Positions 3,501-54,119 of a DNA stretch of 64,000 nucleotides are shown in pieces. The DNA lies in contig JAJRTE010000022.1 in NCBI GenBank assembly GCA_024278455.1, positions 10,539 to 74,538 of the forward strand, in the 5' to 3' direction. Origin of the DNA: Myxococcota bacterium. Its GTDB lineage: Bacteria; Myxococcota_A; UBA796; JAJRTE01. The translations under genes and the position numbers were made by a program. How positions within the stretch are numbered: position 1 is the first letter of the stretch; every line of letters starts with the position of its first letter. The notes beneath the pieces were generated by a model. It was not told where the DNA came from and did no database searches. It saw only the letters and a list, made by a program, of their open reading frames with translations.

Positions 3501-4166
3501 ATGTTCACGGGTATCATCGAAGACATCGGCACCTTGAGGCGCACCGCTCCGGCCAGCGGAGGCCGGCTGACCATCCAGACCGCGCTCCCTCTCGAGCACG
3601 TCAAGCTGGGAGACAGTATCGCCGTCTGTGGCGCCTGCCTGACCGTGGTCGCCATCGACCCGCCTACTTTCGACGCCGAAATCTCTCGAGAGACGGCTAC
3701 TCGCACCACGCTCGGCGCATTGCCGCCTGGAGCCCGTGTGCACCTCGAGAGGGCACTGCGATTCGCAGACCGGCTCGACGGCCACCTCGTGCTCGGACAC
3801 GTGGACGGTGTGGGCACGATTCGAGAGCGCAGGGTGGGCGAGGACTCCACGCACATGGAGATCGCAGCGCCCCCGGCGGTCAGCCGCTACCTTGTCGAGA
3901 AGGGATCCGTCGCCGTGCACGGGGTGAGTCTGACGGTGAACACACTGCGTTCCGACAGGTTCAGCGTGACAGTGGTGCCGTTCACAGCCGGCAGGACATT
4001 TCTGAATACACTGCCTGTCGGTGCTCGAGTCAACCTCGAGGCCGACATCGTGGGCAAGTATGTGGAGAGGCTGCTCCAGGGGCTTGGCACGCGCCGTGCC
4101 GGTGGTGGGCTGACCCTGGAGACCCTGGCCCGGAGCGGGTTCCTCGACGGCACGCGAGACGGGTGA
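3501..4166 (+). CDS. ribE: riboflavin synthase alpha subunit
   Basis: [10 protein letters not shown]...two lumazine-binding repeats; starts immediately after ribD TAG. Confidence 0.92.
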
Positions 4167-4168
4167 GA

Positions 4169-4208
4169 GCCGGCTCGAGGCGATGGTGCCGCGCGTGTCG
4201 AGCCGGGC
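4169..4208 (+). repeat. 10-bp near-perfect inverted repeat (GCCGGCTCGA ... TCGAGCCGG) in the ribE-ribBA intergenic region
   Basis: Stem arms at about 4169-4178 and 4198-4207 separated by 19 nt; no downstream T-run. Confidence 0.5.
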
Positions 4209-4300
4209 ATCGGGAGATCGTGATGGAGGCAGCGAAGAGCGTTCCATCCCCTGCCGGCAGCATGCCGAGCACGGGGGGAAGTGACAAGAGGAGTGGGAGC

Positions 4301-5494
4301 ATGACCGATTTCGAGCCGATGGCGGAACGCTCGGAGAAGCGGGTTCTGGAGGCCATCGAAGACATGAAGGCCGGCCGTTTCGTCATTCTGACCGACGACG
4401 AAGACCGGGAGAACGAAGGTGACCTGGTCCTGGCGGCGGAAAAGGTGACACCGGAGGCCATCAACTTCATGGCTCGGTACGGGCGCGGGCTCATCTGCCT
4501 CGCCCTGACCGAACACCGGGCCGAGGAGTTGCACCTGACGCCCATGGTGTCTCAGAACACCTCCCGGTTCGAAACGGCGTTCACGGTGTCGATCGAGGCC
4601 AAGAGCGGGGTGACGACCGGGATCTCTGCGGCGGACCGGGCGCACACGGTGCGCGTGGCCATCGACCCTAACACGCGCCCCGAACACCTTGCCCGCCCCG
4701 GACACATCTTTCCGCTGCGTGCTCGAGACGGCGGCGTGCTCGTGCGTACGGGGCAGACAGAGGGTTCCGTGGACCTCGCGAGGCTGGCCGGATTGACACC
4801 GGCCGCCGTGATCTGCGAAATCATGAATGACGACGGAACCATGGCGCGCCTGCCCGACCTCCTGGCATTCGGGCGCAGGCACAAGATTCGCATCTGCACC
4901 GTCGCCGACCTGATCCGCTTCCGACTGCGCAACGAGAGCCTGGTGCACCGCGTGGGCGAAGCTCGGGTCGAGACCGGGCGCGGGCCATGTACGGCGATCC
5001 TGTTCGGGTCCGACGTCAGTCCGGCATACCATCTGGCGATACAGATCGGTGAACCGTCCCCGGATCAGCCGGTTACGGTCCGGGTACACCGTGCATCCGT
5101 GCTCGAGGATGTGTTCGGGTGTTTCCAAGGGGCCAACACGGTATCGTTGAGTCGCGTGCTGGACATGATGTGGGATCAGGATGGCCCGGGTGTCGTGCTA
5201 TACTTGTATGCGGCGGGGCAGGACCCACGAGAACTGCGCAACCATTTCGAGGTGTTCCGGTACCAGGTCGAGCGTGGTTGCCCATTTTCGGAGGCTCGAG
5301 CTTCGGTCGGGTGGCGGCATGATCCGAAGGACTTCGGTATCGGCGCGCAGATACTGGCGAACCTGGGTCTGCACAGGATCAAGCTGGTGACCAACGCACC
5401 TTATCGGCTGCGCGGGATCGAGGGGCACGGGCTGGTAGTGGACGATTTCGTGACCATGGCGCCAACGACAGAACAAGAGGAAACAGAAGGATGA
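4301..5494 (+). CDS. ribBA: bifunctional 3,4-dihydroxy-2-butanone-4-phosphate synthase / GTP cyclohydrolase II
   Basis: [14 protein letters not shown] synthase motif and C-terminal GTP cyclohydrolase II domain; ATG 4301 preceded by AGGAG; ORF track opens at 4163 (alternative start 4223). Confidence 0.85.
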
Positions 5495-5982
5495 GTGAAC
5501 ACCTTGAAAAAGTCCGCGTCATCGAGGGGCGCCTCTCTGCAGAGGGTGCCCGGTTCGGTGTCATCGTTTCCCGTTTCAACACCTTCATCACCGAACGGCT
5601 GCTCGAGGGTGCCCTGGATGCGCTGCTGCGCATGGGGGCGACCCCTGGGAGTATCACGGTCGTTCGCACGCCCGGGTCGTGGGAGATCCCGCTGACCGCC
5701 AAGAAGCTTGCCGAATCGGGGGCCTTCGATGCCGTCATCTGTCTCGGCGCGGTGATTCGTGGGGGCACGCCCCATTTCGACTACGTGGCCAACGAGGTAT
5801 CCAAGGGCATCGCGAGCGTCAGCCTATCTTCGGGCATTCCCATCGTGTTCGGCGTGCTGACCACGGATTCGATCGAGCAGGCTGTCGAGCGGGCAGGGAC
5901 CAAGATGGGGAACAAGGGGTTCGAGGCCGCGGAGGCTGCCATCGAGATGGTCAACCTCTACCGCTCTTTGGACAACGTTTGA
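5491..5982 (+). CDS. ribH: 6,7-dimethyl-8-ribityllumazine synthase
   Basis: 163 aa, VIVSRFN...lumazine synthase signature; ATGA start/stop overlap with ribBA. Confidence 0.93.
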
Positions 5983-5999
5983 TTGTTGGGTGGTGTCGG

Positions 6000-6422
6000 A
6001 TGGGCAGTCGAAGGAAGGCACGGGAATACGCCGTCCAGTTGCTCTATCTCCTGGATTTCCGCTCCGGCGAGGATCTCGAGGAACTCGTCGAGAGCTTCTG
6101 GCAGGGCGAGTCGTTCCACGCCGAGGACAGGGCGTTCGCCGAGACCCTGGCACGCGGCACGCGCGAGCACCTGGAGGAGATCGACCGCATCATCGACACC
6201 CACGCCAACAACTGGAAACTCGCGCGGATGCCGATAGTGGACCGCAACATCATGCGGATGGGCGTGTTCGAACTGTGCCATGCGCCAGACTGTCCGGTGT
6301 CGGTGGTCATCAACGAAGCCATCGAGTTGGGCAAGCGGTTTTCCGGAAGCGAGGCAGCGCCGTTCATCAATGGCGTCCTGGACCGGGTCAGGCGCACCTG
6401 CAGGGGGGAGGACCGCCGATGA
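6000..6422 (+). CDS. nusB: transcription antitermination factor NusB
   Basis: MGSRRKAREYAVQLLYLLDF... NusB family, 140 aa; ATG at 6000 inside longer ORF-track frame 5679..6422. Confidence 0.9.
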   Translation: MGSRRKAREYAVQLLYLLDFRSGEDLEELVESFWQGESFHAEDRAFAETLARGTREHLEEIDRIIDTHANNWKLARMPIVDRNIMRMGVFELCHAPDCPVSVVINEAIELGKRFSGSEAAPFINGVLDRVRRTCRGEDRR

Positions 6423-6988
6423 CCGACGACATGATCACCGTCTCGTTTTGCCACGACGGGGTGCTCGACCGTATCCGGGACGTGGAAGCGATCGTGCTGG
6501 GCCTGTTCGAAGACGAGCGGCCGCTCAAGGGCATGACCGGCTTCGTGGACTGGCGCCTCCACGGCCTCCTGTCCCGCCTCGTCCTGCAGCAACGCCTGGA
6601 GGGCACCCTTCTCGAGGGGTGTCTGATGCCGTCTCGAGGCCGGCTGCCGATGGACATGGTGTTCCTGTTCGGGCTCGGGTCGCTGGAAGAACTATCTGTC
6701 CAGACATTCCAGCGCGTCGCATTCCAGGTCGTCGGGACCATGGCACGAGCACGTGTGGGCCACTTCGCCCTCTCCCTCTGGGACCTGACTCGAGGTCGCG
6801 TGGCCCCCGAGGAGGCGGCGAGAATCGTGCTGCGAGCATTCCTGTCCGACAGGAGACACCGGCCTCGAGGGGGACGCACGGCCGTCACTTTCGTCGAAAC
6901 CGGCCCCTGGGGTCACGCACTTCGAGACGCTTTTCTCAAGCTGGCCGAACGCAAGGACGAATTGCCGGTGCGGCTCGAGTTGCATTGA
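6419..6988 (+). CDS. hypothetical protein, leucyl-aminopeptidase (M17) N-terminal-domain-like, translationally coupled to nusB
   Basis: ATG 6419 overlaps nusB TGA (ATGA); 190 aa MTDDMITVSFCHDGVLDRIRDVEAIVLGLFEDE...pattern resembles Peptidase_M17_N/macro-like fold; ORF track frame 5990..6988 is longer but upstream part overlaps nusB. Confidence 0.5.
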   Translation: MTDDMITVSFCHDGVLDRIRDVEAIVLGLFEDERPLKGMTGFVDWRLHGLLSRLVLQQRLEGTLLEGCLMPSRGRLPMDMVFLFGLGSLEELSVQTFQRVAFQVVGTMARARVGHFALSLWDLTRGRVAPEEAARIVLRAFLSDRRHRPRGGRTAVTFVETGPWGHALRDAFLKLAERKDELPVRLELH

Positions 6989-7038
6989 GGAGAACCATGG
7001 CGAGCACGCTTGCCTTTTCCGGGTGAAACTGATATTCA

Positions 7039-7674
7039 ATGATTGACCATCGGGTTGCTCGACGCCGCAGAATCGCCATCGTCGCCCTTGCGTTGGTGGC
7101 AGCGAGCACGCTGATGCTCACCACCGACCTCTTCTGGTTGGTCGTGCGTCCTCTCGTGGTCACGAGCACGCTCGAGAAGTCCGATGCACTGGTTGTGTTC
7201 GGCGGAGGGCTCCGCCATGACGGCCGGCTTGGTTCCAGTACGGAGGAACGGGTCCGATACGCCGCAGCCTTGTACCACCAGGGGTATGCAGAGCATGTCC
7301 TGTTGATGGGAGGATACCGGGTTCCCCCGCGATTCGAGGAATCCGAGGTCATGGCAGATGCACTGGTCCGGCTCGGCGTACCCCGGGACCGAATCCACCT
7401 GGACCGCAGCTCGCGCAACACGTACGAGAACGCCAGGCGGACCTTCGCACTTTGCTCGGAACTCGGCTTCCATCGAGTCATTCTGGTGACATCGCCCTAT
7501 CACATGAGAAGAGCGTGGATGTGCCTCAGACGTTATCCGCTTACCGTGCTCGCGGCACCCGTGGAACAGAGCGAGGCATACCGGCCAGGTCTGAGCGCCA
7601 GGCTCAGAGCCATCGACCTGGTACTGCACGAATATGGCGGTCTGCTCAGCTACTGGTGGCGCGGCTGGATCTGA
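7039..7674 (+). CDS. DUF218 / YdcF(ElyC-SanA)-family membrane-anchored protein
   Basis: N-terminal TM helix, then LVVFGGG...NTYENARRT...ILVTSPYHMRRA DUF218 signature. Confidence 0.8.
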   Translation: MIDHRVARRRRIAIVALALVAASTLMLTTDLFWLVVRPLVVTSTLEKSDALVVFGGGLRHDGRLGSSTEERVRYAAALYHQGYAEHVLLMGGYRVPPRFEESEVMADALVRLGVPRDRIHLDRSSRNTYENARRTFALCSELGFHRVILVTSPYHMRRAWMCLRRYPLTVLAAPVEQSEAYRPGLSARLRAIDLVLHEYGGLLSYWWRGWI

Positions 7675-7734
7675 CCGCCGGTCGATGATCGGCAGTCTCG
7701 AGGACGCCGCCGTGATTCGTTCAAGGAGGTGGGT

Positions 7735-8538
7735 GTGTACAGATATGCGAACCTGGGATGCTTGGTTGTCGGCGCGGGGCTCCTGCTGGTCTCCATCGGC
7801 GTGCATGCCTACGCCGGGGAGGCGGACCCTCTGAAACCGGACTTCTCCCTGAACCACAGGGGCCGGGACGAGTTCGGAAACACCAACTACCGGTACGACT
7901 TCTCCGAACGGCACCTCACCTTCGGCATGGACCTGGGCGCCGCCCTGCCCCAGGGCAACACGTTGAACGCCTTCCCGCTCGGCGGGCTGGTAACCCCCTA
8001 CTTCCGTGGCGCATTCGGTGACGGCAACGCCGTGGAATTCGCCCTCACCTTCGGGGCGCTCCTGCCAAGCGGCACCGAGGCGGACTGGCTCTTCTTCCGG
8101 ACCCCGATCGAAGAAGGCGGCACCGTCTCCGGCCACCTCGGTTTCCTTGCCCCGGTGGTGACCTTCCGGTACGAGATCGGGCTGACCGCATCCATCAGCC
8201 ATCGTGCCAGGGTGTTGACCTGGGGGGGGATCGGATTCGGCCCGGCCTTTACGAGCGGCGAGGTCACCATGACCGGCAACGGCACGCAGCCCGACAAGAC
8301 CGTGACCAACTACGAAGTGTTCTTCGACGTGGTACCCACCTGGGGATTCAAGCTCAGGCTGACCGAATTCGCTTTCCTGCAGCTTGGCGCGCGGTTCCAC
8401 CTCCTGTGGGTGATAGGCGCCAAGGTCACCGGCGAGGACCAGATGACCTACGGCTCACCGGAGGTCATCCAGGAGTTCTGGATTGGAAACTCGAAGATAA
8501 TCGACGCCTTTCTCGGTTTCGGATACGACTTCGGGTAA
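7735..8538 (+). CDS. secreted Gly/Thr/Phe-rich protein, putative outer-membrane beta-barrel
   Basis: Signal-peptide-like N-terminus, amphipathic alternating pattern, C-terminal GYDFG; AGGAGG SD 6 nt before GTG 7735 (ORF track opens 7729). Confidence 0.5.
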   Translation: MYRYANLGCLVVGAGLLLVSIGVHAYAGEADPLKPDFSLNHRGRDEFGNTNYRYDFSERHLTFGMDLGAALPQGNTLNAFPLGGLVTPYFRGAFGDGNAVEFALTFGALLPSGTEADWLFFRTPIEEGGTVSGHLGFLAPVVTFRYEIGLTASISHRARVLTWGGIGFGPAFTSGEVTMTGNGTQPDKTVTNYEVFFDVVPTWGFKLRLTEFAFLQLGARFHLLWVIGAKVTGEDQMTYGSPEVIQEFWIGNSKIIDAFLGFGYDFG

Positions 8539-8596
8539 CCCCCAAGGCCTCGAGGAGGAAGCGCGACCGGCCACGGATCCTCCCGTGCCGCCAGGC

Positions 8597-10627
8597 CTAT
8601 CCTCCAGCCCGTCTCTCGTCCGCCCGCCGCATGCCTTCCATCAGCAGGAAGTCATTGGTCTCGTAGATATCCCGCTCGGCCGTCGTTCGCCCCGCGATGA
8701 CCGCGAACGTACCAGACTCCCACGTGCAGAGTTCGTAGAACGCCTCCTTGCCCGCCAGGTCGCCCAGCCGGGCGGAAACGAGCGAACCCTGTTGGATGTG
8801 GAGAACGCACCGCTCCCCGTCCCGCTGGAGGTCGATCCGCGCCGTCTTCATGCCGAGCTGCAGGACCTGTAACAGGTCGAAGATGCCCAGTTCGGACAGC
8901 GACCCCTGCACGGCCGTGGGGGCCGCCGCCCGATTCGACACTCGCCGCATCCGCTCGATCCGCTTCACCTTGGACACCAGGACGTCGAGGTTGATGGGCT
9001 TGGTGAGGAAGTCGTCCGCGCCCAGTTCGAGCCCCTTGGTCACGTTGGCACCGTCGCTTCTCGAAGACAGGAAGAAGAAAGGGATGTCCTGGGCAGCCTC
9101 CCGACCCTTGAGTCTCGAACAAAGCTCGAAACCATCGACGCGCGGTAGCGTGATCTCGGAGATGACGAGGTTCGGAGGGGCCCGCCGGATTTCCGCCAGG
9201 GCCTCTTCGCCGGTGTGCGCTCTCCGTACCCCGAACCCCTCCTTGCGCAGGCGGAGTTCCAACACCTCGAGCGCCATGGGATCCTTGTCCACGAGAAGCA
9301 CATGGAAGCCGGACACCGGCCTGTCCTCGAGCTGGTCTAGCTTCTGCTCCTTTTCAACTAGTACCTTGAGCGCATCGAGGACCTCCGTATGGTACTTCTC
9401 CCCGCGTCCCTCCAGGAGACGGGCCAGCGCTTTCCGGGGACCGAGTTTCGGGCGCGAGGCCGTCCCGTCACGAAGGTGCAGATAGTCGGAGGCCGCGCGA
9501 AGAATGGCAACCGGGAGAGGCTCCTCGGCCGGATCTCGGGCCGGCTGCCCGAGCGCCTCGAGAATCCCTGTCACGGGCAGCGGCGGCTCGAAGGTCCCCC
9601 AGAGTTCCGCCACCAATTCCGGCCCTACCTTGTCGGATACCCGTTGCGCTGGCCGGCCGCGCTCGCCCAGGTAGTCGCCGAACTGGTAGAGATACCCGGC
9701 AAGCAACAGCGCATCGCGCTCCTCTGGCGAGAGTCCGAGCCGGCCCGCAACCAGACGGCACAACCCGGACACCTGCCGCGCATGCCGGTGAGATGGCGCC
9801 AACGGCTCCCCGCCAAGCAGGGACAGAAAGAAGTCCAGTGTCTTCAGGTAGAAGTTGAACATGCCTCGCGAAGTCCCGTTCTCCTCGAGAAGTTCCCTGG
9901 CTCGAGGCAGCATGCGCAACCGGTGCCTATCCCGCCGCGACAAGGTTGCCACGGCCGACTTGAACGTCCGTTCCTCGCACGTGGCGATCAGCGCGAGTGG
10001 GTTCTTCTCCGCGGCTTCCGCCAGTCCTTCCTCGTCCTGAACCCGCCTCACCTGGTACCCCTCCGCATCCAGCCACACACCCACCGCCCGGGCCTTCCGA
10101 TCGTCGGGCTCGTGGAGAATCAGCAGGGGGGAATGGGATACCTCCACCGGCGCGGCGAGCACTTCGTGTGCCGGAGACGCTTCCCCGTAGTGCAGCGGTA
10201 TCAACTCGTCAAGAAGAGACTCTTCGGCCAGCAACAGCCGGACTCGGTTCAGCCCGTTCTGCCTCTTGACGGCCTCCAGCGTCTCGGTATCGTTCGGTTC
10301 GCTCGTCACGACCGTCAGGCTCTTCTCCTGCTCCGAATAGAAAATCGGCAGAATCCGGCGGGCTCGCGCCACATCCCCAGGGACCATGGCCAGTGCCGCG
10401 CGCGACGGCCTGACGAGGCGAAGTCGTGCCGCCGGGGCTATCGCAACAAGAAGCTGCTCCGACAGCACATCCAGCAGGTCCCCGGTGTTGATGGCCCCCT
10501 GGTCCACGAGAATATGTCCCAGCTTTCCGTGAGAGTCTCGCTGTGCAGCCAGGGCCGTCTCGAGCTGTTCCGCGGTAAGGCGTCCCGCCTCGATCAGAAG
10601 TTGCCCCAGCAGTTTTCTCGCCTCCAT
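8597..10627 (-). CDS. multidomain signalling protein: tandem T2SSE_N/MshEN-like (c-di-GMP-binding type) motifs, degenerate HD/HDOD-like domain, REC receiver, C-terminal DUF4388
   Basis: 676 aa; N-terminus LGQLLIEAGRLTAEQLETALAAQRDSHGKLGHILVDQG matches MshEN 24-residue motif, second GspE_N-like copy at about aa 95-150; receiver with D and K positions (LLVDKD...LVISEITLPRVDG...LTKP); C-terminal LSELGIFDLLQVLQLG...GSLVSA...GKEAFYEL matches DUF4388. Confidence 0.8.
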   Translation of the reverse strand: MEARKLLGQLLIEAGRLTAEQLETALAAQRDSHGKLGHILVDQGAINTGDLLDVLSEQLLVAIAPAARLRLVRPSRAALAMVPGDVARARRILPIFYSEQEKSLTVVTSEPNDTETLEAVKRQNGLNRVRLLLAEESLLDELIPLHYGEASPAHEVLAAPVEVSHSPLLILHEPDDRKARAVGVWLDAEGYQVRRVQDEEGLAEAAEKNPLALIATCEERTFKSAVATLSRRDRHRLRMLPRARELLEENGTSRGMFNFYLKTLDFFLSLLGGEPLAPSHRHARQVSGLCRLVAGRLGLSPEERDALLLAGYLYQFGDYLGERGRPAQRVSDKVGPELVAELWGTFEPPLPVTGILEALGQPARDPAEEPLPVAILRAASDYLHLRDGTASRPKLGPRKALARLLEGRGEKYHTEVLDALKVLVEKEQKLDQLEDRPVSGFHVLLVDKDPMALEVLELRLRKEGFGVRRAHTGEEALAEIRRAPPNLVISEITLPRVDGFELCSRLKGREAAQDIPFFFLSSRSDGANVTKGLELGADDFLTKPINLDVLVSKVKRIERMRRVSNRAAAPTAVQGSLSELGIFDLLQVLQLGMKTARIDLQRDGERCVLHIQQGSLVSARLGDLAGKEAFYELCTWESGTFAVIAGRTTAERDIYETNDFLLMEGMRRADERRAGG

Positions 10628-10717
10628 TGAATCCCCTCTCCCAGCACGTGCCCGGCCCGCACCGTCCCACCTGGTCCATGCGCCCGGGTCACATCGCTCG
10701 AGGGTAGCCGAAAAAGA

Positions 10718-10745
10718 TTGAAAAATCCACCGCGTGACCTACAAT
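10718..10745 (+). promoter_or_regulatory. sigma70-like promoter TTGAAA-16-TACAAT for the HEAT/HD-GYP operon
   Basis: TTGAAA 10718-10723, 16-nt spacer, TACAAT 10740-10745 in the divergent intergenic region; places GTG 10734 inside the promoter and favours ATG 10791 as start. Confidence 0.45.
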
Positions 10746-10790
10746 ACTGCAAAACTACCACGTCCTTGGAACGTATCCGTGGGGGCAGAA

Positions 10791-12557
10791 ATGACATCTC
10801 CCCGCCTTCCCATCGCCGGCAGCGCTGCCGGACCCAGGCCCACCTTGTCGCCCGAAACCCTGGCAGCCAAGGAGTTGTGCGGCCTCCTCAGCAAGACAGC
10901 GAAGGCAACTCGGATCTACGCACGCAACAACGACATCTACCTGCGCTTCTGGAAAGAACTCGTCGCCAACATGTCCCGCTACCTCGAGGACTGCGGCCGG
11001 CTCAGCCTCCAGGTGGACTCGACCCGTATCACCATGGACGGCAACATCGTTTACGAACTCGATACTCGTGAAGACAATTTCGCGTTCCGCCTGTACAAGG
11101 ACGGCATTCGACGCCTCGACTTCGTCCAGGGGCTCACCGAGAACGAACTCGAGACGTTCATGGACATCATCACCATCGATTTCGACCGTGGTGACGCCAT
11201 GGATCGCGACGTCGTCAGCCTGATATGGGAAGCGGACTTCAAGCACATCCAGACACTGTCCGTGGACAGTTTTGCCGAGGAGGATCTCTCGGAGGCCGGC
11301 GAAGGCGAGGAAGCCGAGGACATCGACGAAAGAACGCTCATCGAGCAGGAGACCGAGGCCCTGGCGCAGGCGCTGGAGAAAAGCGCCGAACTGAAGCTGC
11401 TGAGACTCGACGCCGAGGAGCGGGAGACGTATCGTGACGTGTCTTCCGGTTCGGCCGCTTTCGAAGAACGTTCGGCGTTGGACGAAGGCGCCATCTTCCA
11501 AATCGACGCTGCCGAACGCGAGCGTATCAGGCAGGAGGTCGAGGGCTCGCGGGAGGACGAAATCCCCATGGAGCGCGTGGCCGAACTGATCTTCGAACTC
11601 TTCCGGCAGGAGACACCGGACGAGTTCGGAGAACTGACCACCGTCCTCCTCGGCGCCATGGACGTGCTGCTGGCCGAAGGTGCCCTGGAGACCGCGAACA
11701 AGATCTTGTTTCCGCTGAAGATGTTGAGTTCGGAGCACTATGCGCGCGCCTTCACGCACCACAAGCAAGTAGAGAAGCTCTTCCACAGGCTCGGTCAGCC
11801 TCAGCGGCTTGAGTATCTGAAGGTTAGCCTGAATGACGGCCGGCTGGAGGGCGGCCCAAGGGCACTCTTCGGTTTCCTGTCCGTGCAGCTTCCTGAAAAC
11901 GTGCCCGGCATCCTCGAATGGATGGAGGGCATCAAGGACGACGAACTGCGGAGGGCCGCGGTCGACGCCCTGATAACCGTTTCGCGCGACAACCTGAAGC
12001 CGTTTCACGATGTCGTCCGGACGGGCAGCGCGCAGCTTTTGGCCGATGTCATACACGGCATGGGGCGGATAGGGGATGTGCACAGCCTCGAGGTGATCCT
12101 GGGTGCTTTCGCCCATAGCGATCCTGTGGTCCGGGAGGAAGTGCTGGTCGCTTTGCGGTCGTTCGAGAGTCCTCGAGCACGCGAGATCATGTTGTCGGCC
12201 TTGAACGACCCTGTGGAGCAGGTACGCATGGCAGCACTCCGTTACGTGGCGGTGCGCCGTGATCGGCTTGCCGGTCAGCTCCTGGTGGAGAAGATCAACG
12301 GCCGAACGTTCAGGAACCGGTCCTTCGCGGAAAAGCGGGCCATATTCATGGCACTTGCGCACATTCGAGGCCGGGAGGCGCTCCCGTTGCTGCGCGCCCA
12401 GCTCAAGCAGCGGAACGCGGAGGTGCGGCGGGCCGTCGTTCACGGACTGGGCGTGGTCGGTGGCGCCGAGGCGCGCCGCATGTTGGAGCCTCTTGCGCGC
12501 GGCAAGGATGCCGAAATGGCTGCCGAGTGCAGGCAACTCTTGGGCAAGATGAGGTAG
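10791..12557 (+). CDS. DUF3391-like N-terminal domain / acidic coiled-coil / C-terminal HEAT (PBS-lyase type) repeat protein
   Basis: 589 aa from ATG 10791 (ORF track 10734); C-terminal repeated ...ALG.IG......L...L.D.......AA.AL... HEAT units; N-terminal domain paralogous to N-terminus of downstream HD-GYP protein. Confidence 0.7.
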   Translation: MTSPRLPIAGSAAGPRPTLSPETLAAKELCGLLSKTAKATRIYARNNDIYLRFWKELVANMSRYLEDCGRLSLQVDSTRITMDGNIVYELDTREDNFAFRLYKDGIRRLDFVQGLTENELETFMDIITIDFDRGDAMDRDVVSLIWEADFKHIQTLSVDSFAEEDLSEAGEGEEAEDIDERTLIEQETEALAQALEKSAELKLLRLDAEERETYRDVSSGSAAFEERSALDEGAIFQIDAAERERIRQEVEGSREDEIPMERVAELIFELFRQETPDEFGELTTVLLGAMDVLLAEGALETANKILFPLKMLSSEHYARAFTHHKQVEKLFHRLGQPQRLEYLKVSLNDGRLEGGPRALFGFLSVQLPENVPGILEWMEGIKDDELRRAAVDALITVSRDNLKPFHDVVRTGSAQLLADVIHGMGRIGDVHSLEVILGAFAHSDPVVREEVLVALRSFESPRAREIMLSALNDPVEQVRMAALRYVAVRRDRLAGQLLVEKINGRTFRNRSFAEKRAIFMALAHIRGREALPLLRAQLKQRNAEVRRAVVHGLGVVGGAEARRMLEPLARGKDAEMAAECRQLLGKMR

Positions 12558-12617
12558 TCCGGACCCCGCGCGAATCGACCCGGCAGCGAGCAGCGCGGAG
12601 GCGCATGAGGTGACAGC

Positions 12618-14135
12618 ATGGGGAGCCGAAAGGCAGGGAATGACGCAGCGACCGAGGCTCCGGAAAGATCCCTTGGCCTGGCCCGGTTTCATGGTGTCAA
12701 CACCAGGCAGCTCAACGTCAAGGGGCGGCAGTTGATCATCCGCTTCGCCCTGCTGCTTCGGACCGCGAGCATCCACGATGTCCACAACGAGGCGCTCCAG
12801 TCCTCGTTGGATTTCTTCCTCCAGGCGGCCAATGACCTGTTGAAGCTGCTCTCGCCGGTCGTGCTGCAGGGGGACCAAGACCAGATCTATATCAACGACT
12901 TCCGGATTCGGGGCGACGCCACGGTCTACAACAACATCAGGCTCCTGGTGGCCGAGTTCAATCGCAGGGGCACCGGAGGTGTCACCTTCCACTCTGAGCT
13001 GACTCGAGTCGATGTCCTGCGTTTCCTGGAGGTCATCAAGGAGCATCAACCGCAGAGCAAGCCGGACAGGGAGGGGTATCGGAAGCTGAACCAGGCACTG
13101 GCATCCGCCGACGTCAAGGCCATCTCCTGCAACCGCCACCTGGAGTTGGGCGCGGCCGGAGAGTTGAGCAGGTACGGCACCTACAACAGGCGCAAGGCAG
13201 CGCTCAAGACCTATGCCAAGATCCTGGTCGCCATGAAGCGCGTGGTGACCAAGGGAGTGGAGTTGAAGCCGGTAGAGCGGCTCAAGCTGGTCAAGAACGT
13301 CCAGACTCTGATCGACCTCTGCTACGACGACGAGCTGTTCTTCAGTGGACTGAACAGCCTCAAGTGCGAGGGGGACTATTCCTATTTCCATCCCGTACAT
13401 GTAGCCATGATCGCCATCCTCATGGGCAAGCACCTCGGCTTCACCAAGAAGGACCTGATGGACCTCGCGCTCGCAGCACTCTACTACGATGTCGGGCGTA
13501 TCAAGCTCGGACCAGTCCGCCTGGAGAAGCCCCAGACCCTGACAGCGGAAGAGTGGGACGCCGTCAGGCGCCATCCCCTTCGCTCGGCCCGCGAGGTCCT
13601 TCGTGGCGGACACCTCAACCGCTCTCTGCGCAGGAGACTTCTCGTCGCGTTCGAGCACCACCAGTGGGTGCATGAGGGAGGATACCCCCAGAGCATCCGG
13701 TTCCGGGAACCCCACATCTTCAGCCGTATCGTCGCCATCGCCGACACCTACGACGCGCTCACCACGAGCCGGCCCCATCGAGACGGGTACTTGCCCACCG
13801 AAGCCCTGCGCATCATGCTGGACGACGCCGGAAAAAAGTACGACCCGACCCTTCTGCGCGTGCTCGTGAACATTTTGCAGGTCTATCCCATGGGCACCAT
13901 GGTCCTGTTGGACACCCGTGAAATCGCAAGCGTGTACCACAACCACAGCGACCCCGAGCTGCACTTGCGCCCGATCGTGCGTATCCTGACCGATGGAAAG
14001 GGACAGCCCATCACGCCAGCCATCGCGGACTTGAGCGAGACCGACGACAGCGGCGACCACCCGCGCAGCATCGTGCGCACGCTGGAGCCTGACGAGGTGA
14101 ACGCCTATGTATCCGGAGATCTTGCCAATCGATGA
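12618..14135 (+). CDS. HD-GYP domain c-di-GMP phosphodiesterase with N-terminal DUF3391-like domain
   Basis: HPVHVAMIAILMGKHLGF ... HHQWVHEGGYP (HD...HH...GYP) motifs; 505 aa. Confidence 0.85.
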   Translation: MGSRKAGNDAATEAPERSLGLARFHGVNTRQLNVKGRQLIIRFALLLRTASIHDVHNEALQSSLDFFLQAANDLLKLLSPVVLQGDQDQIYINDFRIRGDATVYNNIRLLVAEFNRRGTGGVTFHSELTRVDVLRFLEVIKEHQPQSKPDREGYRKLNQALASADVKAISCNRHLELGAAGELSRYGTYNRRKAALKTYAKILVAMKRVVTKGVELKPVERLKLVKNVQTLIDLCYDDELFFSGLNSLKCEGDYSYFHPVHVAMIAILMGKHLGFTKKDLMDLALAALYYDVGRIKLGPVRLEKPQTLTAEEWDAVRRHPLRSAREVLRGGHLNRSLRRRLLVAFEHHQWVHEGGYPQSIRFREPHIFSRIVAIADTYDALTTSRPHRDGYLPTEALRIMLDDAGKKYDPTLLRVLVNILQVYPMGTMVLLDTREIASVYHNHSDPELHLRPIVRILTDGKGQPITPAIADLSETDDSGDHPRSIVRTLEPDEVNAYVSGDLANR

Positions 14136-14156
14136 CAAAACGGGGAGGAGACCGCG

Positions 14157-14972
14157 GTGACGGCGAAGGAAACTCCTCGAGGGACCGAAAAGCGGTGCCC
14201 GGTCTCCATCGTGACCGATTTCGGCACCGCCGACCCCTACGTTGGTATCATGAAGGGGGTCATGCTGACCATCAACTCCCAGGCCGTCCTGGTGGACGTC
14301 AGCCACGACGTATCTCCCGGGGCGATTCGGGAAGGGGCTTTCATCCTTGGCGCTTCGTGGCCGTTTTTCCCGCCCGGAACGGTGCACCTGGCTGTCGTGG
14401 ACCCGGGCGTCGGAACCGGGCGGGCGCCGGTCGTCCTTGCCGCGGGCGGTCACTTCTTCGTCGGTCCGGACAACGGCCTGTTCACCCTTCTCCTGGACGC
14501 CTTTCCCGGCGCCAGCGCCTGGCGTCTCGAGGCCGGCGCCTACAGGTTGCCTCGAGTCAGTGCCACGTTCCACGGCCGGGACCTGTTCGCGCCCGCCGCG
14601 GCCTGGTTGTCCCGCGGTGTGCCGCCGTCTGCATTCGGGTCGCGCATCCCTTCGCTCGTGCGGCTTCCAAGGGCCGTGCCCGAGCCCATTCCCGGGGGCC
14701 TGGAAGGTGCAATCTGCCATGTCGACAGGTTCGGCAACCTCGTCACGAACATCGAAGCGGGTGTCATCTCGAGGGGGCGGTGGACCGTTCGCCTCGCCGG
14801 GGAGACGATGGCCCTGCACCGCACCTATGGCGACGTCGCGTCCGGGCGGTTCCTGGCGCTCATCGGAAGTTTCGGCTACCTCGAGGTATCCGTGAATGGG
14901 GGCTCGGCGGCCGGCAGGCTCGGAGTCGGCGTGGGCGAACGGGTTGTGTTGGCGCAGGAGTCGCAGGACTAG
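14157..14972 (+). CDS. SAM hydroxide adenosyltransferase family protein (DUF62; fluorinase/chlorinase SalL-like fold)
   Basis: VSIVTDFGTADPYVGIMKGV... and C-terminal barrel motifs typical of DUF62; GGGGAGGAG SD 6 nt before GTG. Confidence 0.85.
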   Translation: MTAKETPRGTEKRCPVSIVTDFGTADPYVGIMKGVMLTINSQAVLVDVSHDVSPGAIREGAFILGASWPFFPPGTVHLAVVDPGVGTGRAPVVLAAGGHFFVGPDNGLFTLLLDAFPGASAWRLEAGAYRLPRVSATFHGRDLFAPAAAWLSRGVPPSAFGSRIPSLVRLPRAVPEPIPGGLEGAICHVDRFGNLVTNIEAGVISRGRWTVRLAGETMALHRTYGDVASGRFLALIGSFGYLEVSVNGGSAAGRLGVGVGERVVLAQESQD

Positions 14973-15038
14973 CACCGGCGAGGAGAGACATTGGCGGGTT
15001 CACCATCGGGAGCGCGTTTGAGCGAAGAAGCAACAGGA

Positions 15039-15713
15039 ATGGGTCGAGCGGTCCTGCTCGAGGTGTTCATCCTCTACGTGCTAACGCTACTGGCGATCCG
15101 TGGTGTCGTCTCCGCCCAGGTCAGGCTGGGATTGCCCGACTGGACCTTGCTGGCGATTCCAGCCCTGTTCATCTACGTGCCGGTCTGGTGGCTGGATCGC
15201 AAGAGGATGGACCCCCAGGATTTCGGCCTGGTCTTGGAGGGCGTCTGGCCTGCGGTGCGGCTGAACTTGCTTCTTTTCGTGGCCGTGCTCATGCCTTTCG
15301 CGGTGGGCAACCATTTCTACCAGGGCCTGCTGTTCGGTCGCAGTCCCCACTGGACGTTACCCCGCGACTTCCTGACACAGGTCGTCGCCTATCACGTTCT
15401 CGTCGTCGCGCTGCCCGAGGAATTCTTCTATCGCGGCTACGTGCAGTCCAGGCTGAACCAGGTGTTCGGGAGGCGTTGGCGGATCGCCGGGGTTCATTGC
15501 GGGTGGTCGCTGGTCATCACGGCGATGTTGTTCGCGGCAGGCCACTCCCTGGTCGTGGTTCGCTGGTGGCACTTCTCGATCATTTTTCCCGCCATGCTCT
15601 TCGGGTGGATAAGGGAGCGGACGGGCAATGTCCTTGCGCCGGCGATCTTTCATGCCTTGTGCAACGTGGTCATGATCACGCTGGACACCTGCTATGGCGT
15701 GGTGCCACCATGA
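15039..15713 (+). CDS. CPBP family intramembrane metalloprotease (CAAX protease / Abi-like)
   Basis: Motif 1 EEFFYRGYVQ, motif 2 FAAGH, motif 3 HALCN, multiple TM helices; ORF track opens 14991 (TTG), ATG 15039 chosen. Confidence 0.8.
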   Translation: MGRAVLLEVFILYVLTLLAIRGVVSAQVRLGLPDWTLLAIPALFIYVPVWWLDRKRMDPQDFGLVLEGVWPAVRLNLLLFVAVLMPFAVGNHFYQGLLFGRSPHWTLPRDFLTQVVAYHVLVVALPEEFFYRGYVQSRLNQVFGRRWRIAGVHCGWSLVITAMLFAAGHSLVVVRWWHFSIIFPAMLFGWIRERTGNVLAPAIFHALCNVVMITLDTCYGVVPP

Positions 15714-16384
15714 GCCGTCGCCGAACAGCGAGAAGGTATCTTGCCGCCTTGAGCATGGTCCTGGTTTTCCCGGTCATCGCGGTCACGGCCGCTGTTCTCC
15801 TCGACCGGATCCTGGTGGTGGTCAACGGCCAACCCATCACGCAGAGCAAGGTGGACCTGTTCAGGGACTACCTCGTCGTGACCGGAGCCGCCGGGCTCGG
15901 ATGGCCCCATGATTTCGACGACGCAAGGTCCCTCTCTCCTGACGCCATGCTGGACATCGTCGTCACCGACGAACTCCTGTTCGACAATGCCGGCAACGTC
16001 AATGTCGTGCGCGTATCCGACAGTGCCGTGGAAGACCGGCTGGCCGCCTTCAGGCGGCGGTTCGGCACCGGCGAGGCGTTCCGGGCTTTCGAGGCCAGGC
16101 AGGGATGGAACCTGGAGATGGAGCGTGAGTTCTTCAGCCGCCGGCTCCGGGTGGAGGGTTACATCAAGTTCAAGCTGGGGTTCGAGCCCCCGGACCGGGA
16201 CGAGTTGCACCGCTACTACGACGCTCACCGGCACCGCTACCGCAACAGGCCGTTCGAGGAAGTCCGGGACAGGGTATCGTTCGAGTATTTCCGGGACCGG
16301 TACAAGAAGGATTTCGACCGCTGGATCGTCGATCTCAAGAAGCGCGCCGTTCTGGTCGTACCCGAGCGGCAAATCGCGCGCTGA
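15710..16384 (+). CDS. SurA N-terminal-domain-like periplasmic chaperone-type protein (single N-terminal TM)
   Basis: ATGA overlap with CPBP stop; MSRRRTARRYLAALSMVLVFPVIAV TM then SurA_N-like fold; embedded in long ORF-track frame 14132..16384. Confidence 0.65.
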   Translation: MSRRRTARRYLAALSMVLVFPVIAVTAAVLLDRILVVVNGQPITQSKVDLFRDYLVVTGAAGLGWPHDFDDARSLSPDAMLDIVVTDELLFDNAGNVNVVRVSDSAVEDRLAAFRRRFGTGEAFRAFEARQGWNLEMEREFFSRRLRVEGYIKFKLGFEPPDRDELHRYYDAHRHRYRNRPFEEVRDRVSFEYFRDRYKKDFDRWIVDLKKRAVLVVPERQIAR

Positions 16385-16476: not shown

Positions 16477-16505
16477 TTGACAACTCCAGCCGGCATGGAT
16501 ACAAT
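16477..16505 (+). promoter_or_regulatory. near-consensus sigma70 promoter TTGACA-17-TACAAT
   Basis: TTGACA 16477-16482, 17-nt spacer, TACAAT 16500-16505; about 260 nt upstream of rimI start. Confidence 0.5.
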
Positions 16506-40521: not shown

Positions 40522-42819
40522 TCAGGGGACCCCGCCGGGAGACCCAGAGCGCGATGCCGGTAGGACTCCCTCGAGACGCGCCGCCTGCTCCACCGATTCG
40601 AAGACGGCGTCCGACGGTTCGGTGAACTCGGTAATGGTGTAGGGATAGACATCGCTGACCGCCGTGGTCCCCAGCACCTCCTCTGCCACGAACCCGAGCA
40701 ACGCCTTGCGCATGGTCGCGACCAGGGCGGAGTCGGTGTCCGGAGCGGCGCAGAACATGTCCGACGGAATCGCGCGCGTCCCGGTCAGAATCTGCACTTT
40801 GCGCTGGAACCCCTGGTCCACGTGGAAGGCCCGCATAAAGGCCTCGGAGTAGACCGCGGCCACATCGCAGCGCCCGGCGAGGAGGTCCATGATGGCCTGC
40901 ACGTGGGCGCCGCTGAACACGACTCGCGAGAACAGCGTGTCCGGGTCGTACCCCTGTTCGCGCAGGTAGAGTCTTGGAAAGAGGTATCCGCTGGTCGAAC
41001 CCCGGTCCACGTAGCAAATGCGCTTGCCCGCCAGGTCCGCCACCGTCTCGATGCCGCTCTCCGCCGGCACGACGAGCAACCCTTGTGACGCGCTGTCATA
41101 TCGTGCATAAGCGACCGGCGTTACATCGGACCGTGCGTGCCGGGCCAGTACATACTGCACCGGTGGGAGCATGCCGAAGTCGTAGGATCCGGCCTCGAGC
41201 CCGGTCCGCAATGCCCGGTAGCTGGGTGCGACCTCCACGTCGATGGGCCGGGCGATACTGGCCTCGAGGTAGCGTAGCAGGGGTGCGAGTTCGCGTGCGG
41301 CGTCGGTGGTCGGGGAGGCGGGATACAGGCCGATTCTCACCACGGGTCCTGCCGGACGCACGGCAGGTGTGGGCATGGTTGCAAGGGTCAGGGCGGTGAC
41401 GAGGATCAGGCCAAGGGCGACCCCCACGGCCGGCGCCTTCCAGCCCACTCTGGCAGCCAACCGCCGGAGCACGCTTGCCCACGGCCGGGCGGCGCGGCCG
41501 AACACGGGCACATCCGGCACACCACCCCGCTCGGCTCCTCTCCCGCCCGTACCAAGGCGATCCACGCCGGCCTGCGCTCGAGACGCGCCCGATTCGGAAG
41601 CCACGAGCCGGGTGTACAGCGCCTCCAGGCGTTCAACGGCCTGCTTCGATGACGGGCGCTCGGCAGCCACTTTCCGGAGGCACTGGTCGATCAGCGCGGC
41701 GAGGTCCTTGGGCAGGTCCCCGGCGACCTGGGAGACCGAGGGCACCGGCTCGAGGCCGGCCACCGCATCCGGGATGTGTTGGAGCGGGACCCCATGATAG
41801 GGACGCCGCCCGGTCACCAACTGGTACAGAACAAGCCCGAAGGCCCACATGTCGGTCTCGGGACCTATCGGCTCCTCCCGCCACTGTTCCGGCGCCATGT
41901 AGGCGGGCGTACCCAGGAATCGGCTCTTCACCGTGGTCGATTCGCCCCCAGCCAGGCTCTGGAGCCCGGACGCGGTGACGCGAACGTCCTCCATCTTCGC
42001 ACCAACGCCGTCGCCGGTGGACGCCAGTCCCTTGGCAAGGCCGAAGTCGAGCACGCGCAACCGGCCGTCAGCGGGCAGCATGATGTTGCCAGGCTTGAGA
42101 TCCCGGTGCAGCACGCCGTGCTGATGTGCTTCGGCGAGCGCTCGAGCAATCGGCAGGCCCAGCCGAATGGCCTCCTCGGCGCTCGGCACGGTCCGGGCCA
42201 TGTGCTCGCGCAGCGTCAAGCCCTCGAGGTACTCGAGCGCCATGTACGGGCGCCCGGCATGCTCCCCGACGGCATAGATGGAGACGATGTGTGGGTGGTT
42301 GAACCGTGCCGTGGTGCGTGCCTCGAGGAGGAAGCGCTGGCGAGTGGCATAGGAGCCGAGGTAGCCCGGGGAGATCACCTTGAGGGCCACGGGCCTGCCG
42401 AGGGTATCGTCTCGAGCCAAGTAGACCTCTCCCATACCGCCCCGGCCGACCAGGCGCTCGACAACGAAGTGATCCACGACGGTGCCCGGGGCCAACGGCG
42501 CCATGCCAGGGGCCGGGGTCGCCAGCGTCCGGGTCACGGTCGCGGCCGAAACCTCCATGCCCGAAGCGGCGGACAGGGTGTCGACGAGCGCCCGGCAACG
42601 CACGCACTGTTGCAGGTGCCGGCCGATGGCAGACGCCTCATCGAGTGGCACGATCCCATCCAGGACCTGCTGGATCGTGTCGGGGTCGAGGTGTACATGA
42701 TCGGCATCGACGGGGGGAGTGTGCTTCCCGGCCTCGTCGCCGGGCTGAGCCGAACATGCGGGCTGCTCGCCCATGTCGATCGGCACGCCCTGTCCTGGTG
42801 CGTCGTCTCGATCTGTCAC
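40522..42819 (-). CDS. Ser/Thr protein kinase with N-terminal zf-HC2 (anti-sigma-like) segment, TM helix and periplasmic PhnD/SsuA-like phosphonate-binding-protein domain
   Basis: Kinase subdomains GRGGMGEVY, ALK, HRDLKPGNIM, DFGLAK, APE; N-terminal H..C..C motif; C-terminal 300 aa matches PBP phosphonate-binding fold; GTG 42819 has GAGAGG SD (ORF track TTG 42834). Confidence 0.8.
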   Translation of the reverse strand: MTDRDDAPGQGVPIDMGEQPACSAQPGDEAGKHTPPVDADHVHLDPDTIQQVLDGIVPLDEASAIGRHLQQCVRCRALVDTLSAASGMEVSAATVTRTLATPAPGMAPLAPGTVVDHFVVERLVGRGGMGEVYLARDDTLGRPVALKVISPGYLGSYATRQRFLLEARTTARFNHPHIVSIYAVGEHAGRPYMALEYLEGLTLREHMARTVPSAEEAIRLGLPIARALAEAHQHGVLHRDLKPGNIMLPADGRLRVLDFGLAKGLASTGDGVGAKMEDVRVTASGLQSLAGGESTTVKSRFLGTPAYMAPEQWREEPIGPETDMWAFGLVLYQLVTGRRPYHGVPLQHIPDAVAGLEPVPSVSQVAGDLPKDLAALIDQCLRKVAAERPSSKQAVERLEALYTRLVASESGASRAQAGVDRLGTGGRGAERGGVPDVPVFGRAARPWASVLRRLAARVGWKAPAVGVALGLILVTALTLATMPTPAVRPAGPVVRIGLYPASPTTDAARELAPLLRYLEASIARPIDVEVAPSYRALRTGLEAGSYDFGMLPPVQYVLARHARSDVTPVAYARYDSASQGLLVVPAESGIETVADLAGKRICYVDRGSTSGYLFPRLYLREQGYDPDTLFSRVVFSGAHVQAIMDLLAGRCDVAAVYSEAFMRAFHVDQGFQRKVQILTGTRAIPSDMFCAAPDTDSALVATMRKALLGFVAEEVLGTTAVSDVYPYTITEFTEPSDAVFESVEQAARLEGVLPASRSGSPGGVP

Positions 42820-43001
42820 GCGTTCCTCTCGCAAGCTGTCCGGGGGCGGCCCGGTTGCCGAAGTGTCATGCGGTCTACCTGCCGGTTTCAGGCTAACACT
42901 CCGGCTCGGTGCCAGTCAAGGTGGAGGGCGGCGCCGACGAACGCGTACCGCACCCTGTTCAGGAAACGGGGTGAGCTTGCCGAACCGGAAACTGGTCTGG
43001 C

Positions 43002-53969: not shown

Positions 53970-54119
53970 CCCGACCGCGTTGGATGATGTTGCCGCAAAA
54001 GATGCAGCACATGCCAACCGAGGTGTTATCTTTCTACCAGGAGCGCGGCGGCCGTCGATGGGACGTCCTTGGAGACAGCGGTCTTCGACGCCGATACGGC
54101 CTCCCGCGCAGCTTCGAGG

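Follow-up and report, generated by a model that had tools for sequence, protein, structure and literature searches.

When the gene of a putative receptor for cyclic di-GMP (c-di-GMP) lies head to head with a string of genes that includes a member of the HD-GYP family, does the locus as a whole represent one signalling system? This question is raised by positions 8597 to 16384 of a 64,000-nucleotide (nt) stretch from a Myxococcota bacterium (GenBank assembly GCA_024278455.1, contig JAJRTE010000022.1; hereafter “the window”), where a minus-strand gene for a 676-amino-acid (aa) protein with MshEN, degenerate HD-GYP, receiver (REC) and DUF4388 domains (8597..10627; open reading frame (ORF) and Pfam evidence) faces plus-strand genes for a HEAT-repeat protein, an HD-GYP family protein, a DUF62 protein, a CPBP protein and a 224-aa protein. 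A previous interpretation that was made from the letters alone (the sequence-only reading) took all of these for a single module that senses and degrades the second messenger and is coupled to envelope proteolysis or chaperoning. In the light of the evidence presented here, we consider it probable that the interval holds three separate things, namely a HEAT/HD-GYP cassette, a receptor of the MXAN_2809 type, and neighbours that are unrelated to either.

The HEAT/HD-GYP cassette

The conserved unit of the locus comprises two genes only, that of the HEAT-repeat protein (588 aa; 10791..12557, plus strand; HEAT_2 84.7 bits, in the C-terminal third) followed by that of the HD-GYP protein (505 aa; 12618..14135, plus strand). 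We scanned every ORF of 80 loci from species-representative genomes with the window proteins; 72 of these loci lie outside the clade formed by the window and its close relatives. When adjacency was counted only for full-length HD-GYP orthologues with at least 1.5 kilobases (kb) of upstream sequence, a HEAT orthologue was found immediately upstream and on the same strand in 35 of 37 full-length orthologues outside the clade, as opposed to 1 of 35 generic HD-GYP genes. Full-length homologues of the 505-aa protein, ~30% identical, occur in many phyla, and the titles of the records that contain homologues name Gemmatimonadota, Nitrospirota/Thermodesulfovibrionia, Omnitrophota, Eisenbacteria, Myxococcales, Actinomycetota, Bacteroidota and others. 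According to public gene calls, the two genes abut or overlap, with a 2-nt gap in a metagenome-assembled genome (MAG) of Nitrospirota (locus L003) and a 4-nt overlap in Gemmatimonadaceae (L005). In the latter group (L005/L006, 8307-11485) the cassette interrupts the tryptophan operon: it separates trpB (PALP) from trpA, and the gene ends overlap. A search of the literature on HD-GYP proteins with HEAT repeats, on Bd2402 and on MXAN_2809 returned nothing on a HEAT/HD-GYP pair; the pair is widespread and seems to be undescribed.

Both cassette proteins open with a homologous domain of ~145 aa, which is encoded at 10839..11267 in the HEAT gene and at 12696..13142 (residues 27-175) in the HD-GYP gene, both on the plus strand. 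Comparison of two profiles of ~40 sequences with hhalign related the two segments at a probability of 98.8% (E 7.7e-17), and in a phmmer cross-match the HEAT N-terminus independently matched the HD-GYP orthologue in L078. Comparing the two N-termini directly by BLASTP gave no significant match, the homology being seen by profile-profile comparison only. No Pfam family matched the domain, even at E values up to 10; its structure model is confident, with a predicted local distance difference test (pLDDT) score of 92, and a fold search of the PDB returned helical-hairpin matches only and no match to the fold. We infer that the HEAT and HD-GYP products would pair through these paralogous N-domains, and that the HEAT subunit could thereby act as a regulator or scaffold of the HD-GYP subunit in cyclic-dinucleotide signalling. 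The cassette with its common N-terminal domain is the real conserved feature of this locus, and it was overlooked by the sequence-only reading.

The second cassette gene had been put forward as a c-di-GMP phosphodiesterase, and as far as the domain is concerned this holds. The 505-aa protein consists of the N-domain, an HD-GYP domain (HD_5 75.6 bits, cut-off 27.2) with its GYP motif in place and a small C-terminal beta domain; its AlphaFold2 model (pLDDT 81) found PmGH, Bd1817, PA4781 and DvhD (4mcw, 3tm8, 4r8z and 9rbz) in a Foldseek search with E values from 1e-7 to 1e-4. The catalytic dyad, however, does not conform. Alignment with PmGH places YDVGR (13485..13499, plus strand; Y290, D291 and R294 in the context LYYDVGR) at the position of HDxGK, such that Y290 corresponds to H221, D291 to D222 and R294 to K225. 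The Tyr is found in all clade members (52-83% identity), as against His in 40 of 40 other orthologues; the Lys is likewise Arg in the clade but kept in 37 of 40 other orthologues, and the Asp that precedes GYP has become Glu or Gly in the clade. On the other hand, the family alignment shows little or no variation at H258, D291, H319, H347, H348, D376 and G355-Y356-P357. In PmGH, both H221A and K225A abolished activity (PMC4159591), and no activity is detectable for PA2572, a YN-GYP protein of P. aeruginosa that retains signalling (PMC3411652). Since the alanine variants of PmGH are inactive and the clade combines a YD dyad with Arg at the catalytic Lys, the phosphodiesterase label is doubtful. 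Judged from these residues, hydrolysis of c-di-GMP by the YD-GYP protein seems questionable, and the protein would more likely be a weak or non-hydrolysing nucleotide sensor or adaptor.

A different kind of change is seen in two Myxococcales MAGs (L040 and L045, at ~10001-11300), whose cassette orthologues have kept HD, lost GYP (GNVS or GNIS), acquired HK in place of HH and have a shorter C-terminus; here the family has degenerated independently and in a second manner.

The divergent putative receptor and its proposed link to the cassette

The 676-aa product, to which the database protein P0001 is identical, had been proposed to carry tandem MshEN motifs at its N-terminus, and hidden Markov models (HMMs) of both Pfam and NCBIfam agree. 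Residues 65-150 match the Pfam MshEN family (PF05157) with 42.1 bits against a cut-off of 23.1, and the 53-residue c-di-GMP motif of NCBIfam (NF053729; 60.2 bits, cut-off 38) covers residues 6-58 (10454..10612, minus strand), which read LLGQLLIEAGRLTAEQLETALAAQ, spacer RDSHG, KLGHILVDQGAINTGDLLDVLSEQ. The two motifs thus occupy residues 6-29 and 35-58, in keeping with the definition of MshEN as paired 24-residue motifs with a 5-residue spacer (PMC5013675). In the PDB, the first 150 residues match solved MshEN domains that bind c-di-GMP, namely those of PilF (3e-19), PilB of Geobacter (2.7e-11) and MshE of V. cholerae (5htl, 1.6e-9). The authors of the relaxed pattern [RKPN]hGxxhhxx[GAS]hhxxxxhxxxhxx[QNKRYWST] point out that conservation need not be perfect (PMC5013675). 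Motif II fits this pattern, and except for Lys in place of Arg it fits the strict pattern too. Motif I departs from the relaxed pattern twice, with Leu at position 1, where R, K, P or N is expected, and Arg at position 11, where the pattern calls for a hydrophobic residue; its Leu is kept in clade relatives, most of which have Arg or Lys as the preceding residue (Gln in P0168). With most positions of the binding motif kept, binding of c-di-GMP by the MshEN segment is plausible, and we refer to the protein as a putative c-di-GMP receptor.

The remaining domains (a degenerate HD-like domain, a receiver and DUF4388) are likewise those that had been predicted. The middle domain (~residues 257-430; 9338..9859, minus strand) has neither an HD dyad nor HH..GYP. 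Its HD_5 match (residues 280-318) reaches 17 bits, under the cut-off of 27.2, as opposed to 78-84 bits in the relatives P0173 and P0175, and the HD position reads YLYQFGDY when aligned. HH..GYP was found in 0 of 30 family members checked, and HDxG in only two, both outside the clade. By its residues, this domain is a dead HD-GYP remnant. The receiver domain (8966..9301, minus strand; Response_reg, residues 443-554, 84.9 bits) has Glu491 (9155-9157) at the position of D57 of CheY: a phmmer alignment that included CheY sets VISEITL against VISDWNM, and Glu occupies the acceptor position in most family members. With Glu in place of the acceptor Asp, the receiver would not be a conventional phosphorylation target. 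The C-terminal DUF4388/PATAN (PatA_N) domain (residues 574-672; 8612..8908, minus strand) is recognized by Pfam with 76.8 bits against a cut-off of 25. Between the MshEN and middle domains, residues ~167-235 (10126-10130 region; PLLILHEPDDRKARAV...YQVRRV...ALIATCEE) resemble by eye the first half of a receiver domain. This stretch is kept in P0002, P0167 and P0191, and Pro/Ala-rich low-complexity inserts are found in its stead in P0168 and P0169.

A word-index search with the full 676-aa query was dominated by receiver domains and contained two real homologues; the family became visible by exhaustive search, which yielded dozens of 50%-identity cluster representatives of the same layout at 27-50% identity. 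A metagenome scan with the clade-specific middle domain gave one locus, a duplicate of the P0002 lineage. The sequence-only reading had not recognized the gene combination as a described system, but as regards the receptor its architecture was already catalogued by Wang et al. in 2016 (Nat Commun, Suppl. Table 4; PMC5013675), who list MshEN - HD-GYP - REC - DUF4388 for Myxococcales with MXAN_2809 as the example. The window protein has its four domains in this order, and its HD-GYP part is homologous to the full HD_5 domains of its relatives, even though it scores below the cut-off.

Receptor and HEAT genes face each other in all four clade lineages with a readable junction, as the divergent arrangement described in the sequence-only reading would have it: the window itself, L001/L093 (72% identity), L007-L010 (48%) and L012 (49-51%). 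In L012 the genes past the receptor differ, being those of a prephenate dehydrogenase and a ParA-like ATPase, and the junction is kept all the same. In another relative (L002, 59-61% identical), the YD-GYP gene stands at the start of the contig and is followed by genes for a cytosine/purine permease, pilB, pilC, pilS, pilR and two pilins (3691-11570). Outside the clade, the only part of the MshEN protein to find matches within 10 kb in the 72 loci was the receiver domain. We therefore limit a functional tie between receptor and cassette to the clade, where we infer one.

How might these proteins work together? In the clade, the receptor, the HEAT protein and the YD-GYP protein would constitute one c-di-GMP-responsive unit, in which the receptor likely takes its input from c-di-GMP at the MshEN motif, not from phosphorylation, and the output may consist of protein-protein contacts of the PATAN domain. 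Among the catalytic or phospho-acceptor sites that were checked in the three signalling proteins, three are altered, those of the YD-GYP protein, the dead HD-GYP domain and the Glu-receiver, and for this reason we favour a unit that senses and transduces over one that senses and degrades. A bolder version, which we consider possible but rather unlikely, is that of a hitherto unrecognized, phylogenetically broad two-subunit cyclic-dinucleotide device whose subunits would pair through the new N-domain, that in this clade would have become a fully non-catalytic c-di-GMP sensing complex by recruiting the MshEN/pseudo-receiver/PATAN protein, and that would relay its signal by protein contacts, possibly to the type IV pilus or polarity machinery.

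Downstream neighbours and rival readings

The family labels given to the next two plus-strand genes are borne out by Pfam. The DUF62 gene (14157..14972) encodes both domains of S-adenosylmethionine (SAM) hydroxide adenosyltransferases (SAM_HAT_N 181 bits, SAM_HAT_C 85.5 bits), with an (R)-SAM hydrolase as its nearest NCBIfam model (230 bits, under the cut-off of 350). The product of the CPBP gene (14991..15713) is Rce1-like (Pfam, 61.5 bits) and matches the NCBIfam model Mrt_core (NF040914) with 123.5 bits against a cut-off of 100, the more specific models MrtP, MrtC and MrtX staying below theirs. Myxosortases have been proposed to act as sorting enzymes on C-terminal sorting signals. The last gene (15710..16384, plus strand), whose start overlaps the CPBP stop as ATGA, had been labelled SurA-N-like, a label that finds no support: there was no match to SurA_N or to any NCBIfam model, and the single Pfam match with E values up to 10 was to Rotamase_2 at 17.3 bits, under the cut-off of 27. 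Its 224-aa product belongs to no recognized family and has a hydrophobic N-terminal segment that can be seen by eye, suggesting that it is membrane-anchored. Orthologues of this protein follow CPBP in L001, L007 and L095. In one relative (L095, GCA_964516475.1, 82% identical; 4645-7596), the membrane-protein gene is followed by genes whose products have 213, 581 and 198 aa, the second of them being a GAF-class III nucleotidyl cyclase, and the overlapping same-strand string thus continues where the window has GNAT and rimP.

Could these genes nevertheless belong to the signalling system? If all six or seven genes formed one c-di-GMP sense-and-degrade system with DUF62 as an integral enzyme and, as its output, envelope proteolysis or chaperoning by the CPBP protease and the SurA-like protein, the tight packing of the plus-strand genes, the ATGA overlap, and the fact that the order HEAT, HD-GYP, DUF62, CPBP, membrane protein is found again in L001, L095, L007 and L094 would be readily understood, all the more since L095 keeps the block though the genes downstream of it differ from those of the window. 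Beyond close relatives, however, the set does not hold together. Outside the clade, not one of the 72 loci had a homologue of DUF62, CPBP or the SurA-like protein within 10 kb, and the HEAT and HD-GYP genes alone co-occur there (the 35 of 37 given above); none of the three follows the HD-GYP gene in L002, which has the permease and pil genes instead; and in L007 and L094 an opposite-strand methyltransferase gene splits the block between DUF62 and CPBP. For these reasons we judge DUF62, CPBP and the membrane protein to be ordinary neighbours outside the signalling unit; they would simply have been inherited between it and the rimP-nusA-infB block. It also speaks against a six-gene system that the annotated roles of the DUF62 and CPBP families, (R)-SAM hydrolase and myxosortase, are unrelated, that its would-be degrading enzyme has a YD dyad and that its would-be chaperone lacks HMM support. 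We consider such a system very unlikely. To be weighed against our own reading is the observation that DUF62 follows the HD-GYP gene in five of six clade lineages, with gaps down to 10-30 nt, so that it may be co-transcribed with the latter and hence to some extent coupled to it.

The other findings that count against our reading concern the receptor and the active site, and two further explanations build on them. Motif I of the MshEN segment has Leu6 instead of the guanine-stacking Arg, and its Arg16 falls on the site of the inactivating I19R substitution of XpsE (PMC5013675); c-di-GMP binding is thus not assured. Furthermore, the link between receptor and cassette rests on four lineages of one clade, and the receptor is beside the cassette in 0 of 37 full-length loci outside it. 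The two could accordingly be functionally independent, with a divergent arrangement that is nothing but synteny inherited within the clade and a cassette that works as it does in other phyla. Such independence would agree with the Myxococcales MAG loci L040 and L045, which have the cassette without the receptor, and with a slowly rearranging neighbourhood, as indicated by the synteny from the rib operon and nusB to rimP-nusA in L001. It would leave unexplained why the junction has been kept down to ~48% identity and, in L012, despite the different genes past the receptor, why all three proteins have domains related to cyclic dinucleotides, and why the clade-specific change from HD to YD coincides with the receptor as a neighbour. 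The junction is probably kept also beside L002, where the genes past HD-GYP differ; an exact end overlap between L012 and L002 was not found, and their adjacency is assumed from the shared sample. On balance, we think independence possible but rather unlikely. We are about equally sceptical of the remaining alternative, in which the YD-GYP protein is still an active, HEAT-regulated phosphodiesterase (the Tyr would then be a metal ligand, or the site mononuclear or binuclear, and the substrate could be a different one such as 3'3'-cGAMP or pGpG), so that “degrade” would hold for the core pair. Tyr is able to coordinate iron and Arg to substitute for Lys electrostatically, and hydrolysis may therefore survive. 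The retained H258, H319, H347, H348, D376, D291 and GYP could be read in the same way, as could the second-best PDB sequence match, which is the cGAMP-specific HD-GYP protein 5z7c, and the strict conservation of the Tyr in the clade, which suggests selection and not decay. What makes us doubt activity is the joint change of three conserved positions, with Tyr for His, Arg for Lys, and Glu or Gly for the Asp that precedes GYP, along with the inactivity of the two PmGH variants and of the YN-GYP protein PA2572. We thus continue to favour a sensor or adaptor that is tied, within the clade, to the receptor.

As for the layout of the locus, all ORFs listed in the sequence-only reading were found where it had placed them, including the ATGA overlap (15710-15713). 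The gaps between the plus-strand genes, given there as 61, 22 and 66 nt, measure 60, 21 and then 18 nt (TTG start at 14991) or 63 nt (ATG start), the discrepancies being due to one base or to the choice of start codon. The HEAT gene starts at ATG 10791 in the database call (P0155), not at GTG 10734. The divergent spacer (10628..10790, 163 nt) contains a promoter-like TTGAAA-16-TACAAT on its plus strand (10718-10745) with 10 of 12 matches in a consensus scan, which is a pattern match only. The best sigma-70-like match of the region (TTGACA-17-TACAAT, 11 of 12; 16477-16505, plus strand) lies between the membrane-protein and GNAT genes and suggests that a separate transcription unit begins there. 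On this side the locus is flanked by GNAT, rimP, nusA and infB, and on the other by the rib operon, nusB, an M17_N-only protein, DUF218 and a 269-aa ORF. The M17_N-only protein (195 aa; 6401-6988, plus strand) is an N-terminal domain of Peptidase_M17 alone, located between nusB and DUF218, in the same order as in L001. The 269-aa ORF (7729-8538, plus strand) belongs to no Pfam or NCBIfam family; it is 66% conserved in L001 beside the receptor gene and is not there in L012.

Elsewhere in the window, whose G+C content is ~64%, are genes for chaperones, transporters, a kinase and one hybrid histidine kinase. The kinase is a Ser/Thr protein kinase fused to a phosphonate-type periplasmic binding domain (40522-42915, minus strand), and the hybrid histidine kinase is of the GAF-PAS type (53988-56981). 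No ORF in the 64 kb contains a GGDEF motif, in agreement with the earlier statement that no diguanylate cyclase is present, by a regular-expression search only. An Rfam scan of the window returned no riboswitch or other RNA, and no connection with a defence system was seen by PADLOC.

Significance and relation to known systems

Of the classes of c-di-GMP phosphodiesterases, that of the HD-GYP proteins is less well understood, and only a few proteins are known to partner with them. An obligatory partner gene with a common sensor-side domain, found from Nitrospira to Gemmatimonadota, would offer a testable handle on the regulation of a large HD-GYP subfamily, and the shared N-domain would define a new domain family. 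The YD variant of the clade, beside an MshEN receptor, provides a natural setting in which hydrolase and sensor states can be compared. Conversely, the window locus does not warrant annotating DUF62, CPBP or the membrane protein as parts of a c-di-GMP system.

Among known systems, PmGH, PA4781, Bd1817 and DvhD share with the YD-GYP protein their fold, most metal ligands and the GYP motif. They differ in that the clade has changed HD to YD and Lys to Arg, and in that the window protein has an N-domain of unmatched fold and an obligatory HEAT partner gene. PA2572 also has Tyr for the HD histidine and keeps GYP, and is inactive yet regulatory (PMC3411652). In contrast to the window protein, however, it is a REC-YN-GYP protein in which the Asp is lost as well; it lacks a HEAT partner and acts together with an orphan chemoreceptor.

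The receptor is closest to the MXAN_2809 type, from which it cannot be told apart by the order of its four domains or by the tandem 24-residue motifs in MshEN; its relatives have the middle domain, REC and PATAN in common with it (27-50% identity), and some members have a low-complexity insert of 100-200 aa. What sets the window clade apart is an HD-GYP part below the Pfam cut-off. No functional study of MXAN_2809 was found in the literature. The MshEN domains of MshE (V. cholerae), PilF (T. thermophilus) and PilB (Geobacter; 5htl, 6f8l, 8pe0 and 5tsg in all) are homologous to residues 3-150 (E 1.6e-9 to 3e-19) and have the same two motifs and 5-residue spacer, with the conserved Gly, Leu and Gln positions kept in the window protein. 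The latter, however, has no ATPase domain; its motif I has Leu for Arg (preceded by Arg-Lys) and Arg after the turn Gly, and its motif II has Lys for Arg.

Finally, the combination of REC with PATAN recalls the cyanobacterial regulators of the PixG, PixE and PatA type, although in the window protein REC precedes PATAN, the acceptor is Glu, and the MshEN and HD-like domains come in addition. In cyanobacteria, the motor of the type IV pilus is a binding partner of PATAN-REC proteins (bioRxiv 10.1101/2021.06.11.447907). The 64-kb window contains no pilus genes, but the related cassette of L002 adjoins pilB, pilC, pilS and pilR, and by analogy this context hints at contact with the pilus motor as a possible output of the receptor.

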